Below are positions 5,980 to 12,518 of a stretch of 64,000 bases of DNA, in pieces; the first letter of the stretch is position 1, and each line of letters starts with the position of its first letter. Under the pieces are notes generated by a model. It saw nothing but the letters and a program-made list of their open reading frames with translations, was not told the origin of the DNA and searched no databases. The stretch spans positions 1,039-65,038 of the forward strand of contig CAJBLF010000015.1 in assembly GCA_903953935.1 (NCBI GenBank). Reading direction: 5' to 3'. Source of the stretch: an uncultured bacterium (GTDB lineage: Bacteria; Patescibacteriota; Gracilibacteria; Absconditabacterales; Absconditicoccaceae). The position numbers were made by a program, and so were the translations under genes.

Positions 5980-6084
5980 ACTTTATAACTAACAACTAAA
6001 AACGAATAATTAACAATTATTGTGTTTTCTTGTTATAAACTATAACGATTCTGTGAAGGCTATCAAGTTTTTTGATATAGAGCA

Positions 6085-6107
6085 AAAGCCCGGAAATTCC
6101 GGGCTTT
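6085..6107. terminator. Stem-loop AAAGCCCGG-AAATT-CCGGGCTTT
   Basis: Perfect 9-bp GC-rich stem. Short U tracts on both strands. It fits as the 3' end of the minus-strand ORF-free unit. Confidence 0.55.
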
Positions 6108-6903
6108 CAATCAAATATCTTGTTTGTTTTGTGTAATGGTCTTACCATCATTGAGGCTCTGCTTCCTCTTGGCTTACAACTTCATAGACTTAGCTATGGT
6201 TATCATCAAAGAATCCTTTTCTTCTAGACAACTATTCCATGTAACGGCGAAGATTTTTATGTCCTGTGGTTGCATATCTGGCATATAGACATTAACTCAA
6301 ATCCTCAAAAGAGTCTTATTGTGCTTGAAGAAGGGCTTGATTATCGGGCCTTCTCTTCCCTTAACTATGGACCATAGATAGCCTCGCTTTCTTTTTTGCT
6401 CGTGGATACCTTTGTGTATTTCTTGTGAAGACCTTACAGGCTTCGTGGAGAACCGTCTCTCTTGCCTCCCATTTTCCGTTAACATCCACGGAAATAGCGA
6501 TTAAACCACGCCCCTGCGTTTTGTTGAGTGTCGGGGATTTTCTGAAAGAAATGGATTGTAGGGAATATGAATTTGGTTATCGGGTCCCTATACCCTTCTA
6601 CTTAAAACATAGTTTTATAGCAAATTTGAGCGTTAAACAATTGATTGAATTGATGTACATGTGTAATCGGCGGTGACCTCCCTGATGTAGGTTCGGATCG
6701 TCCGATGCAAGCGCTCTTCATGGCGCGGTTTTTTTGTTTTTTCATGGCATACAGGTTTTAGGCTGGCTCCCGTTGCGATAGTTGCGGAGCGGCCGGGCCG
6801 GTTACTTAATACAGATCGATTCGATTGACTTTCCCTTGGGGAAAGTCGGAGATGCTCTAATCATGACTTTTGTTTTAGTTAGCACTATTTTTGTTAATTG
6901 TGT
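6085..6903 (-). ncRNA. Candidate large structured RNA (about 0.8 kb), family unknown
   Basis: No credible ORF under table 11 or 25, and visibly GC-richer than the flanks. A consensus promoter lies upstream (6910-6937) and the 6085-6107 hairpin downstream. Contains many local hairpins, e.g. GACTTTCCC-TTG-GGGAAAGTC at 6825-6848. Confidence 0.3.
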
Positions 6904-6909
6904 ATCAAT

Positions 6910-6937
6910 CTTATAATTATTTTATATTAAATGTCAA
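6910..6937 (-). promoter_or_regulatory. Sigma70-like promoter, TTGACA-16 nt-TATAAG
   Basis: On the minus strand, TTGACA is at 6937-6932 and TATAAG at 6915-6910. Confidence 0.55.
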
Positions 6938-6964: not shown

Positions 6965-7315
6965 AAAAAGGAGTAGGTTGAGAGCTATGGAAACCATAGA
7001 TGAACCTGACTCCTTCATTGTTTGGCAGGTAGCTGCTATAGCAATACTGCCAGATGCGGATTTACCGCGATAATGATGATAATAAAAACCGGGCCGATTA
7101 GCGTTGCCCGTATTGCTCTTTTTCTAAGCTGCGGTCGGAACATTACAGATGGGAGCCTAATCCACCTGAACATCTGATATGGACGGCGTGCCTCGCATTG
7201 TGTTGTTCCCATTCCTCTCGTACTAGGGAACTTCATGATATGCATAATGATGCTTAGAAAAAGAATACTGATATCCAAGATGCCAAAGAACAATGAGAAT
7301 TTTGCTACCTAGGAT
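6965..7315 (-). ncRNA. Candidate structured RNA (about 300-350 nt) with a sarcin-ricin-loop-like hairpin; family unknown
   Basis: ORF-free and GC-richer than the flanks. Ends in a long hairpin (6970-7013) followed by TTTTTCTTG on the minus strand. The 5' end is not defined. Confidence 0.3.
7205..7231 (-). other. Hairpin GUUCCC-UAGUACGAGAGGAAU-GGGAAC mimicking 23S rRNA helix 95 (sarcin-ricin loop)
   Basis: 15 consecutive nt (CCUAGUACGAGAGGA, 7213-7227) are identical to the E. coli 23S SRL region. The loop length is the same and is closed by a 6-bp stem. No flanking rRNA similarity. Confidence 0.5.
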
Positions 7316-7376
7316 TGGTGTGTTATATATATTTTAAGCAATAAGACAAGAGATAGTTTTTCGCGTTTATTTCGCT

Positions 7377-8808: not shown

Positions 8809-10560
8809 TTATTTTGATTGTGCTATCGCTAACACCTCTTCGATTATCTTTCTTTCAGATGATAACTTAGGTATTTTAGTTTGCCCTCACAATGTTTTTT
8901 TTTGTGACTGTATCCGTTGGTTAAATGTACCTGGAGGGACGATATGTATGATAGGCATTTTGAGTAAGATATCGTTTTTACGCTTTGATTCGTAGTCCGC
9001 ATTTTCCTCTTGTAAATATATATCAAGCTGCTCTGTTAATGCCACTAACGAGCATTGTTTTGGGAGTTCGCCTTCAAGTATCCATTCATGAACCTGAGGA
9101 TTATCATCATTATCTGGTCCGACTGTGTATCATGAAAAATCAGATTGATATAGTTTGTGTATCTTATACAGTGCTCTATTGATATGATCTTCCATCAATT
9201 CCTCTCCTTTGAGATTGATACATTCCTTTGTTCTTCCTACAATTTCAAATCTCCATCACTCATCGACAAAACAAATGACATCACCTATTACATAACGAAA
9301 CAACCCACTATTTGTGGTTATCACCAATGCGAATTTGGTTTTTTGTGAAATATCATGAGCAGTTATTTTTCGAATTGGTTTAACATGTGCTGTAGGCCTG
9401 ACCCTTCATTGATCGAAATTTTCTGGCGTAAATGGAATGAATTCATAAAATACTCAATGATTGATAACAAGCTGATATGGAGCCTGTGCCTGATCATTTT
9501 CATAATGCACAAGATCCTGATATCAAAAATATCATTCGGATGCATTATATGCTCAGATGTGAGATATGCCTAATGTATTGAAATATCTAATATAGGGTCT
9601 TGCACTCACTCATCACCACACTACTAAATCCAAATTTTTGATGAATGATCTAAATTTCTTGGGTGATTTTTTCTTCATATATTGTAGCATCTCACATATC
9701 CGGCTTGTCACACCAAGCATAATGGTATGCTCATTGGGACGAAGTTTTTTTATAAAAAGATTTCTTTTGATATACCAATTTGGCTCTAAAAACACCGACA
9801 ATGGATATTTATATTTTTTTTGTAAAAGACGACTTCTTTCCAAAATCATCAATGCAGACACATCAGCGATAATGCTTCCGTCTTCGAGTTGTTCCTGTAT
9901 AGTACCACCAAGCGGTCGTGAATATGCCCCGAACGCCTGTGTTTCTGGGTATTTCATAGCATAGGTGGCAAAGGTAGCTAATCCCGCTTTATTTATCGAT
10001 TCCAAAGATTCATCGGTCACAGGAATATGTTTTTTTCTGCTTGTCGTCCCCGCAGAAGCTGAAAATCTCTGTATTTTACCTGGCCAAATTATGTCTGACT
10101 CTTTTTTTGCGCGTTCTATTCGATACTTATACTGATCATAGGTGACAATAGGGACATGACTGATAAAATCCTTGTACATATCATCAGAAAAAGACACGAA
10201 ATCATGCTCCTTACCAAATGCTGTTGCCTTTGTTTTGGAAATCAAATAAGATAGAATATCTTTTTGTGTCTGTTCGGCATTTTCTAGAGATTCCTCTATT
10301 GATGGATAGATGAATGACTTTAGATAGGTCACAAATATAAAATTAAATGTCTTGGTCTCTAATAGTAATGATAGTAGCCCTCTTGTATATTCACCCATAT
10401 TTTCTTCTGTAACAAATTTTTCTTCGTGATCAATCGATGCATATCTTTTTATAATACGTGCAATCGTTTTTTTATTATCACCAAAAAGTTCATGTACGGG
10501 GAAAGTCCAGTAGTACACTCTAACAAATATATTTCATAGTCTTTTTCGCATGGGCTTCAT
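8809..10560 (-). CDS. GH3-family (acyl-acid amido synthetase-like) protein, paralog 1
   Basis: One frame across many TGA. Motifs FGKEHDF, SASAGTTSRKKHIP, YNASEgYFgYQD, GLFRYVIGD, GRTKECINLKGEEL, LggQTKIPKL. Starts 3 nt after the stop of paralog 2. Confidence 0.75.
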
Positions 10561-10563
10561 ATC

Positions 10564-12369
10564 TTATGATATATTTATCATACCCAATATCTCGTCAATG
10601 TTTTTTCTATCGTTGGCAACTTTGGGTACCTTATATTGTCCACCAAGTTTGTTTTTTGTTTTCATCCATTCATAAAATGTTCCTGTAGGTGCAGCGTGCA
10701 CTATAGGAAACCCGAGCACTTTCGTAGAATACCTTTCATCAGCATAAAAAGGATTAATCGTTCATAATTCTTGATCCAGCGTCTTGGTAAAGATATTCAT
10801 ATGCTCTGGCTTTTTGATAAATTCTATGATTCGTTCATGAGCACCTCTTGCCTCACGTCATCATTCATATACATGTGGTCATACGGTATATTCTGCTATA
10901 ATAGTATCTGTTTTTTTACATGTTTCCAATATTGCTTTTTCTATATGAGATAAGAACATACGCTCCCCTATCATATCTATAAAATATTTTGTTCTTCCTG
11001 TAATCTTTATCTTTCGTGGAGTAAGATTGGTAAACACAACTACATCTCCTAATATATATCTCCAAAATCCGGAACAATTGGTGATAATGATAACATATTC
11101 TTTCCCCAACTCTACTTCTTGTAAAGAAAGTACGGGAACATTTGTTGTTCCATAATTTTCTAAAGCAATAAACTCATAGAAGGTACCATGATTGGTCAAG
11201 AGCAACATATCGTCTACATCATTTTCATCTTGTATACCAAAAAATCATTCAGAGGCGTTATAGACTTGATAATATTTCATCTTGGGATTTGGTATTAGTT
11301 TTTCAAATTGATCCTTATATAGGGTAATGGGCAATCATCCTCGAAAAAACAATTCCAAATTTGGTCGAACTTCTGATATGTTTTTTTTGCCTGTATATTC
11401 TAATACTCTATATAATACATTCAATAACCATCATGGCTGACCATTGATAGAGGTTATATTTTTATCTACGGTATACTCAACAATGGCATCTAGCTTGTTT
11501 TCTCGATCTTCTATATATGCGATATCATCTTGTGGCTCTTTGAGTATCTTACCAAGCCATGGGGTGTTTTTTTGTAAAATAGCAGAAATGAATCACACAT
11601 TTTCTTCTCCTGTATAGGGATTTGTACTGAGTGCTCCTCAAATAATCAATCATTTACCGTTCAAAAACTGACTTCTTGGATTATTTTTGATATAAAATGT
11701 TAATCCATCAATACTTCCTTTAAAGTGACATTTTCTGAGTCACTCCATAGTAACCGGAAGATATTTTGCAGTAGTCCCGGTAGTTCATGATGAAGTAGCA
11801 AATCGATCTATTTTACCAGGATAGGTTATGTCTTCTCATCATTTGAGCATATAATGTACCCATGGCTCAAAATCATGATAATGAAAAATAGGGACTTGGT
11901 TTTGAAAATCTGCGATAGTTTTTATCTCACTAAATGCATATCTTTTTCCAAACATAGTTTTTTTACATTTGTTGATGAGTCCAATCAATATAGCTTCTTG
12001 ATCCAAAAAACTATTATCACGGAAATCTGCATTCAAGGTAAAAAATGTTTTTACTACCTTATTCAATACACGTACGGGCATATGTAAGAGCTGTTTAGGT
12101 ACCTCAGTAATTTTACCTGGATGTCCCAAAATATCCACGGAAGCATTGATAAGATCAAGCGACATTTCCCATGACATATTCAAAATATCCTTTGGCATAT
12201 TCAAAATAAGCTTTGGTGCTTTCAACACTTTTTTGGATACTCTCAGTACTTTCTTGGGAACCGTAGATACGTGAGCTTTCATAGAACAAGATACGTATAA
12301 AAAATAGGCCAACAATAGTGCGTCTTTTGTATGTATTATACGTATGAATGCAAGAATTTTTATATCCAT
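10564..12369 (-). CDS. GH3-family protein, paralog 2, with a repeat-containing N-terminal insert
   Basis: Motifs FGKRYAF, TSSgTTGTTAKYLP, YNASEgFFGIQD, GFWRYILGD, LGGQYKVPKV. The N-terminus carries about 70 aa of short PK..L repeats. Confidence 0.75.
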
Positions 12370-12518
12370 ATATATAATTCCACAAAAATAGATACCAACA
12401 TTTTCTCTTTTTTTCTCATGAGATTTTGTTATTTATACTTTACTATTAAAATAGTATGAATATTTAGAATATTACAAGATTATGTGTACTAGAAATCTTT
12501 TAATCTTTTAGTTGTAGT

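Follow-up and report, generated by a model that had tools for sequence, protein, structure and literature searches.

What occupies a G+C-rich stretch behind glyA in an uncultured Absconditicoccaceae bacterium, and why does it carry a near-exact copy of the sarcin-ricin loop (SRL) of 23S ribosomal RNA (rRNA)? The stretch lies at positions 6965-7315 (minus strand) of a 64 000-nucleotide (nt) piece of contig CAJBLF010000015.1, here called the window. It was flagged in a first-pass annotation, read from the sequence alone, which proposed a small RNA with an SRL mimic that could titrate factors recognizing the SRL. The comparisons presented below support a discrete, promoter- and terminator-bounded, structured non-coding RNA, which we name RNA1. 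Its family carries further loops that resemble 23S rRNA, and we tentatively suggest that it is a modular stable RNA presenting 23S-type hairpin loops as binding or decoy modules.

RNA1 and its family

The glyA loci of relatives were fetched via GlyA homologues, and GTDB genomes, JGI metagenomes and IMG/VR were searched with a pattern taken from the conserved core. Homologues of RNA1 were found in L010, L008/L009, L015/L024/L035/L042, L016, L026/L031, L019, L018 (truncated by the contig end) and, as a partial variant uncovered by an nhmmer search, L040; L001 and L002 come from the window's own organism, with 100% identity over the gap behind glyA. Including the window, the family comprises nine distinct sequences, all downstream of glyA. 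RNA1 is absent from seven other glyA loci of candidate division SR1, the Absconditabacteria (L003, L004, L005, L007, L038, L039 and L041), and its distribution within SR1 is patchy. The 18-base core anchor GGTGGANTAGGCTCCCATC identified four true homologues among the GTDB species representatives and four in JGI metagenomes, the remaining matches being chance or coding. As judged from these searches, the family is confined to a subclade of SR1 and is new to description.

An Rfam scan, one of the checks proposed in the first-pass annotation, matched RNA1 to no described family, even with the 366-nt element alone. None of the 4227 models of Rfam 15 reached the gathering threshold in the window or in 14 related loci, and permissive scans (E ≤ 10) of 2.5 kb, of the element alone and of the L040 variant gave noise far below threshold. 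A literature search on SRL mimics or decoys, and on structured RNAs of Absconditabacteria and the candidate phyla radiation (CPR), found nothing relevant. The features of RNA1 are as follows.

7344-7349, minus strand: predicted promoter -35 element TTGTCT; every homologue is preceded by this conserved block, CTTG(C/T)(T/C)(A/T)T and then AAAATATATATAA
7322-7327, minus strand: predicted promoter -10 element TATAAC after a 16-nt spacer, in the same conserved block of all homologues
6965-7315, minus strand: RNA1, a candidate structured non-coding RNA of about 350 nt, based on homologues, covariation, no conserved open reading frame (ORF) and no Rfam match
7281-7291, minus strand: boxA-like box GUUCUUUGGCA (GUUCUUUGACA in relatives), an invariant family block after a variable 5' hairpin
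7252-7260, minus strand: 5' strand of helix P1, UUUCUAAGC, paired with 7129-7121, with compensatory changes
7194-7240, minus strand: 47-nt lineage-specific insertion bearing the SRL-like hairpin, in the window (and the identical L001/L002) and L010 only
7205-7231, minus strand: SRL-like hairpin GUUCCC-UAGUACGAGAGGAAU-GGGAAC, with a perfect 6-base pair (bp) stem and a 15-nt loop
7132-7193, minus strand: near-invariant core AGGCACGCCGUC ... CAGGUGGAUUAGGCUCCCAUCUG ... UUCCGACCG, including hairpin P2 (7168-7146)
7121-7129, minus strand: 3' strand of P1, GCUUAGAAA, with compensatory changes matching the 5' strand
7090-7110, minus strand: P3 hairpin CGGGC-AACGCUAAUCG-GCCCG, with a loop like 23S 1321-1331
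7056-7068, minus strand: P4 hairpin GCGG-UAAAU-CCGC, conserved, with a G-C to A-U compensatory change in L016
7023-7052, minus strand: P5 variable hairpin UGGCAG...CUGCCA, with a conserved base and a distal part whose length and sequence depend on lineage
6965-7015, minus strand: 3' module and predicted intrinsic terminator, AAGGAGU...ACUCCUUUUU, with an inner covarying hairpin and a U-run

The promoter-like block (CTTGnnnT... AAAATATATATAA) past the glyA stop and the terminator module are common to all homologues, and the predicted -10 position implies a start near 7315, in agreement with the first-pass proposal. Other elements of that proposal were also borne out. The terminator-bounded end is recognizable as a long 3' hairpin with a U-run at 7015-6965; the stretch is richer in G+C than its surroundings (0.43-0.49 at 7000-7300, compared with 0.344 for the whole window); and it contains no credible ORF, none being conserved among the homologues. 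The longest ORFs in the element change strand, frame and length from homologue to homologue, and a 4-nt deletion and two 1-nt insertions break the frame between the window and L010. The fold z-score of RNA1 is -2.9, and nhmmer found no second copy in the window. We infer that RNA1 is transcribed as a stand-alone stable RNA. Candidate identities for RNA1 or its neighbour RNA2 (described below), namely 5S rRNA, SRP RNA, RNase P RNA, tmRNA, 6S and T-box, were rejected, as the signature motifs were missing by eye and Rfam gave no matches.

Covariation was assessed on a hand-curated structure in seven sequences, with slid partners and column shuffles as controls. Paired cells amounted to 89.5%, against 37-51% in the slid controls, while nine pairs changed on both sides, against 0-2 in the slid controls and a level reached by one in 500 column shuffles. 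With seven sequences, this is supportive, not overwhelming. The long-range helix P1 reads CUAAGC/GCUUAG in the window, CCAAGU/ACUUGG in L008 and CCAAGC/GCUUGG in L018, with U-A replaced by C-G and C-G by U-A or U.G across the homologues. The stems of P3, P4 and P5 likewise show compensatory changes, as does the inner terminator hairpin (CUAUGG/CCAUAG, CUGGG/CCCAG or CUACGG/CCGUAG). Alignment of syntenic loci, another of the proposed checks, thus provided covarying helices for RNA1 but none for the SRL-like hairpin, whose two carriers are approximately 97% identical. The core (AGGCACGCCGUC ... CAGGUGGAAUAGGCUCCCAUCUG ... UUCCGACCG) is identical or nearly so in the eight members that possess the P1 domain, which indicates strong constraint; as it does not vary, it yields no covariation signal for P2.

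Within this core (7146-7175, minus strand), CCAUCUG can pair with CAGGUGG, across a 9-nt loop, or with an upstream CAGAUG, but not with both at once. The core may contain a conformational switch; L010 has deleted CAGA, which favours the CAGGUGG pairing.

The box GUUCUUUGAC(A) is invariant in the family, with a second mismatch in the window, whose version begins GGC. Compared with the published boxA consensus GYTCTTTAANA, derived from gamma-proteobacteria (PMC5725501), the form in relatives (GTTCTTTGACA) agrees at 10/11 positions and that of the window (GTTCTTTGGCA) at 9/11. A degenerate pattern fitting the box selects exactly the two boxA sites of the E. coli rRNA operon rrnH, and in approximately 330 kb of loci the exact box was found a single time at each RNA1 locus and at no other site. 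It is too short for significance in the window alone, where its count is not above chance. The box may be a functional boxA; if genuine, it would point to an untranslated stable RNA that is transcribed in the rrn manner and resists Rho.

Loops resembling 23S rRNA

All rRNA identities were scored against E. coli rrlH 23S (L037); neither the window nor the fetched loci contain a 23S gene of the host. For the SRL-like hairpin, the first-pass coordinates, the 6-bp stem with its 15-nt loop and the 15-nt identity were confirmed: CCUAGUACGAGAGGA (7227-7213) is identical at 15/15 positions to 23S nt 2651-2665, and the stem forms in the full-length minimum free energy fold. The hairpin carries the sarcin/ricin sequence signature, UAGUA-C-GAGA-G-GAAU, which combines 5'-AGUA-3'/5'-GAA-3' with a C-G pair and a GAGA tetraloop, and on this signature it would adopt the sarcin/ricin motif type. 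The 47-nt insertion that bears it is found in 2/9 distinct members (the window and L010) and is absent in 7/9, which run AUUAUGCA-AGGCACGCC uninterrupted. The SRL-like hairpin is an optional accessory module, not a feature of the RNA1 family. The 15-mer stands out by where it lies: a 350-nt non-coding RNA carries it on its sense strand, as the loop of a perfect hairpin, and the family of that RNA has further rRNA-like loops.

The clearest of these other loops is found in L018, where a hairpin of about 56 nt is inserted between P3 and P4. Its tip, GAACUGAAACAUCUAAGUA, agrees at 19/19 positions with E. coli 23S 189-207, which we take to be helix 11 in the standard numbering. L040 carries the same 19 nt at the same position. 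The stems beneath the two copies are unrelated: CUACGGA/UUCGUAG inside AUGAAGUGU/ACACUUCAU in L018, and AUGAU/AUCAU inside GGAGUACU/AGUACUCC in L040. The closing pair of the 19-nt copy, G-C in E. coli, has become A-U and U-A in L018 and L040, respectively. This 19-mer is expected approximately 0.007 times in about 400 kb of CPR DNA (both strands); it was seen twice, both times in RNA1. The module combines a conserved loop with a changed stem, the pattern expected of a selected mimic. Helix 11 and helix 95 both bear conserved sarcin/ricin motifs, that of helix 11 being one of five conserved in the large subunit (LSU) (PMC8450098), and among the bacterial variants the helix-11 sequence, CUAAGUAC*GGAACUG, is the most frequent (PMC4551918).

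The third case is P3, a hairpin present in all members with a loop of the form AACGYUAAUCG. The first-pass annotation had stated that nothing else nearby resembles 23S, which does not stand in this respect: the loop of the hairpin at 7110-7090 matches E. coli 23S 1321-1331 at 10/11 positions (12/13 in a longer match), and the P3 of L019 matches 23S 1320-1333 at 14/14. The 23S counterpart (hairpin 1314-1338) likewise has an 11-nt loop, on a 7-bp stem. The P3 stem itself occurs as CGGGC/GCCCG, GGGUC/GACCC, UGGGUC/GGCCCA or AGGGUC/GACCCU. This resemblance is suggestive. In all three rRNA-like cases the identity spans the loop, and the stem bears no relation to its E. coli 23S counterpart, a pattern that selection on the loop would produce. 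Other matches of 10-13 nt (16S 344-355, 951-960 and 1097-1112; 23S 639-669, 800-820 and 1928-1941) fall in variable hairpin tips or occur at the background frequency of coding DNA, and are not claimed.

Weighing the explanations

On the reading that we put forward, which is possible rather than probable, RNA1 would be a modular scaffold that has received lineage-specific hairpins as grafts; the scaffold would consist of a boxA-like 5' box, P1 around a near-invariant core, a set of three hairpins and the terminator module. The SRL-like hairpin would be one such optional graft. RNA1 would display 23S-type loops outside the ribosome as binding or decoy sites, and its targets would be factors that normally recognize such loops in the large subunit or in precursors of it. 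In the window's organism, the SRL-type module would bring in a further partner that binds the SRL, for instance a GTPase of translation or ribosome assembly, or a nuclease or glycosidase specific for the SRL. That such factors bind the loops, and which partners these might be, we infer from sequence resemblance. The strongest argument for this binding or decoy role is the helix-11 loop, identical on unrelated stems.

Several observations weigh against such a role, and the SRL module itself is its weakest link. The bacterial helix-95 variant has an A.C pair (...GGACC), which the window loop lacks: it reads ...GGAAU, with A.A, and ends in AU rather than CC. Nearly all bacterial SRLs are of the A.C form, while A.A is archaeal and eukaryal and is the generic and most stable variant (PMC8450098). 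As it has A.A, not A.C, the window hairpin is as near to the generic sarcin/ricin motif as to the bacterial SRL. The AGUA/GAA element, C-G pair and GNRA tetraloop are themselves a generic modular design, and once they are in place nothing but the closing pair and two positions of the tetraloop can vary, so that arriving at the SRL sequence by convergence is not very improbable. The 15-mer match by itself is within chance expectation: the number of chance 15-mer matches to E. coli rRNA expected in a 64-kb window is about 0.5, and two independent ones were seen, in coding sequence, in approximately 400 kb of related CPR DNA on both strands (about 1.7 expected). Neither covariation nor purifying selection is demonstrable for the SRL hairpin, because its only carriers, the window and L010, are near-identical and form a single shallow lineage; of the 11 differences between their RNA1 copies none falls within the insertion, where 1.4 are expected. 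The consensus of the 1321-1331 loop is just moderately conserved in bacteria, and the P3 loop has diverged in L008 and L040. A general rRNA-like enrichment of the whole 1.4-kb gap behind glyA is weak (top-10 score sum of 210, compared with 187 ± 11.5 in shuffles; p ~ 0.013). Finally, no candidate partner protein is evident among the neighbouring genes, which encode GH3-family enzymes, a DUF456 protein and a GH26-like protein.

The alternative that best survives, although we consider it somewhat unlikely, is that a sarcin/ricin motif with a GNRA tetraloop serves RNA1's own architecture, as a rigid arm, tertiary contact or protein platform, and that its identity with the SRL reflects convergence. 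Sarcin/ricin motifs recur in many unrelated RNAs in diverse roles (PMC4551918, PMC8450098), and the features listed above, the generic and most stable A.A form (PMC8450098), a statistically unremarkable 15-mer and a peripheral, dispensable hairpin missing from seven of the nine members, all fit. This explanation leaves the 19-nt helix-11 copy in L018 and L040 unaccounted for, as 11-12 of its apical-loop nt lie outside the sarcin/ricin motif and it sits on two unrelated stems; given this precedent in the same family, pure convergence on the SRL becomes less parsimonious.

An extended version of the decoy proposal is unlikely as a whole, and would take RNA1, probably with RNA2, as a trans-acting 'ribosome look-alike' of predatory or epibiotic Absconditabacteria. 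Made by rrn-type boxA/Nus machinery, it would swap 23S loop grafts (helix 95/SRL, helix 11, 1321-1331) and thereby titrate factors that bind the large subunit or attack it, for example as an immunity decoy against ribotoxins directed at the SRL or at sarcin/ricin motifs, or as a buffer for GTPases or assembly factors, with modules exchanged as the targets change.

Short pieces of the host's own rRNA genes or transcripts might instead have been inserted now and then, by break repair, template switching or gene conversion, into a tolerant RNA gene where they have no function. The insertions are lineage-specific, at permissive positions that also take unrelated insertions, and the locus appears to be an insertion hot spot (protein genes in L003; a pseudouridine synthase gene in L004, L038 and L041). 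We nevertheless regard functionless patches as quite unlikely: the identity ends at the loop, with flanking stems unlike those beside the loops in E. coli 23S; the hairpins formed by the grafts are perfect; and two helix-11 copies with different stems and a 100% identical loop demand either two independent captures or long loop-specific constraint.

Very unlikely, in our estimate, is pure chance, in which a variable hairpin of an unrelated RNA happens to match the SRL. The expected number of 15-mers and their presence in related coding DNA are as given above, and screening for recognizable motifs in the first-pass annotation introduces a large hidden multiple-testing factor. Such a match must, however, hit a 350-nt RNA, on the sense strand, in the loop of a perfect 6-bp hairpin, with the sequence of an S-turn and tetraloop, and the family has two further rRNA-loop matches.

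A cis-regulatory element (a glyA 3' untranslated region, or a leader or riboswitch of the downstream unit) or a small-protein gene is effectively excluded. The fixed position after glyA in all homologues would suit a cis element, and a ligand might bind in the invariant core. Against this, a conserved predicted promoter separates glyA from RNA1; a predicted intrinsic terminator and a separate conserved promoter-like element precede the next unit, itself non-coding; and the glyA loci of the close relatives L003, L005, L007 and L039 lack RNA1. RNA1 is neither the 5' leader of a regulated ribosomal-protein (r-protein) gene nor, as a riboswitch or cis-leader would be, upstream of and co-transcribed with a coding gene, and a small-protein gene is contradicted by the lack of any conserved ORF.

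The first-pass view that this is not an rRNA gene is upheld. The short 23S identities and a boxA-like box as in rrn leaders might suggest the remnant of a decayed rRNA gene, or one piece of a 23S gene that is split up, but this is effectively refuted. The element alone gives no LSU (RF02541) or small-subunit match at E ≤ 10, and BLAST against E. coli rrnH yields an isolated 15-mer, its other matches being short. The matches are not collinear with 23S, since in the window the match to 2651 comes before that to 1320. The flanking sequences are unrelated, RNA1 has its own predicted promoter and terminator and family-specific covarying helices, and the existence of relatives without the SRL module means that it cannot supply an essential ribosomal part.

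The locus and comparison with known systems

UGA falls on invariant glycines of GlyA (KYSE-G-FPG, SHG-G-HLTHG, Q-GG-P) in the window genome, which shows that the genetic code is 25 (UGA = Gly). ORFs called with table 11 are uniformly short across the window and long genes reappear once UGA is read as sense; with code 25 in use, table-11 ORF lists are therefore misleading throughout. The top GlyA homologues are from SR1. The gap between glyA and the next protein gene is gene-free over 1.4 kb, four times the length of the flagged interval, and holds two units, RNA1 (~7315-6965) and RNA2 (6937-6081), each with a promoter-like element and a terminator hairpin.

8812-12432, minus strand: two tandem GH3-family (acyl-acid amido synthetase-like) paralogues, upstream of glyA
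8660-7380, minus strand: glyA
6081-6937, minus strand: RNA2, a second G+C-rich, candidate non-coding unit of about 830 nt, with a predicted promoter TTGACA-16-TATAAG (6937-6909) and terminator hairpin (6107-6081)
5982-5461, minus strand: DUF456 gene, the next protein gene after glyA

The neighbours of RNA1 are thus glyA, the two GH3-family genes, the DUF456 gene and a GH26-like gene; inspection of the neighbourhood revealed no ribosomal-protein gene. The order GH3-GH3-glyA is retained in several SR1 relatives. Scans of the 64-kb window with Rfam and with ARAGORN (tRNA and tmRNA) found no rRNA, tRNA or other Rfam family.

RNA2 directly follows RNA1 wherever RNA1 is present and is also found without it (L007, L004), so RNA2 is probably the older element. 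Its near-consensus promoter and 3' core are kept in L004, L007, L008, L010, L015, L016, L019, L026 and L040. The core comprises AAUCUUCGCCGUYACAUGGAA ... AGAGGAAGCAGAGCCUC and the hairpin GAUGGUAAGACCAUC, while the 5' modules are variable, with covarying stems. RNA2 has no Rfam match, and among viral contigs there was no true match for the RNA1 anchor, the SRL hairpin variant or the RNA2 core. A 20-codon ORF in RNA2 (6802-6864, minus strand; MIRASPTFPKGKSIESICIK) is in frame in the window, L010, L008 and L015. Its MIR(A/G)SP start and K*/H* end are kept and its middle is a hairpin with a covarying stem, so that it may be either a micro-protein or a coincidence of RNA structure.

The locus is also plastic beyond the 23S-like grafts. 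A 5' module of about 150 nt is common to L026 and L040 only, and L040 lacks the entire P1 domain. In L019 (4094-4432, plus strand), an internal second copy of the 3' module (GGUUCAUCU...AGCUCUCAACC) lies upstream of the real terminator; because it is duplicated internally, the 3' module appears to be a structural unit, not only a terminator. Protein genes replace both RNAs in L003. A gene for an RluA-family pseudouridine synthase occupies the RNA1 position, with glyA on one side and the RNA2 promoter or the next gene on the other, in L004 (6543-7238), L038 (5866-6558) and L041 (4463-5149), and this position may mark an insertion hot spot. The GGTGGANTAGGCTCCCATC pattern also matches a repeated protein-coding gene in three contigs of a 'Nostocaceae' metagenome-assembled genome and in two metagenome contigs (L014, L017, L020, L028 and L032); these are unrelated to RNA1, and multi-copy matches to a short pattern need not be homologues.

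The RNA biology of SR1 and the CPR is essentially unexplored, and even the most conservative reading adds two new structured RNA families, RNA1 and RNA2. That a 1.4-kb non-coding locus is kept in a phylum of tiny genomes implies importance, and the RNA1 family offers a natural experiment in the gain and loss of RNA structural modules.

OLE, GOLLD, ROOL and raiA are large orphan structured non-coding RNAs that were found as G+C-rich intergenic regions in AT-rich genomes. RNA1 came to light in the same way, in a gap richer in G+C than the AT-rich genome around it, and it too has covarying helices and an invariant core; it matches none of them (all are in Rfam 15), has a narrower distribution and differs in its rRNA-loop grafts. 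6S RNA, an open-promoter mimic, and the protein-sponge RNAs of the CsrB/RsmZ type are stable, abundant and stand-alone. The role proposed for RNA1, that of presenting sites which imitate another nucleic acid, would be of the same kind; RNA1 has no sequence or structural similarity to these RNAs, as Rfam gives no match, and the imitated objects would be 23S hairpin loops.

The 5' part of RNA1 is reminiscent of an rrn leader, with its boxB hairpin and boxA, in having a strong promoter-like element, a variable hairpin and the box GUUCUUUGAC(A), and helix P1 encloses the core as processing stems do in rRNA. Unlike in an rrn leader, no rRNA follows the box, and the window's box has the additional GGC mismatch. 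With the helix-95 SRL of 23S/28S rRNA, the SRL-like hairpin shares 15 consecutive nt (in E. coli), the AGUA/GAA signature, the GAGA tetraloop and a closing helix; it differs in lying outside any rRNA, on an unrelated stem, in the A.A form, and in being dispensable within its family.

The autoregulatory leaders of r-proteins (such as L1, L10, L20, S8 and S15) mimic rRNA sites and so capture an rRNA-binding factor; they act in cis, with one mimic each. RNA1 likewise has short rRNA-like elements outside the ribosome, but with its own predicted promoter and terminator, several interchangeable look-alike loops and no r-protein gene nearby. If its loops are functional, RNA1 would to our knowledge be the first stand-alone bacterial RNA with several interchangeable large-subunit hairpin loops, and rRNA mimicry, so far the domain of cis-acting r-protein leaders, would widen to a modular trans-acting RNA in SR1 and the CPR.

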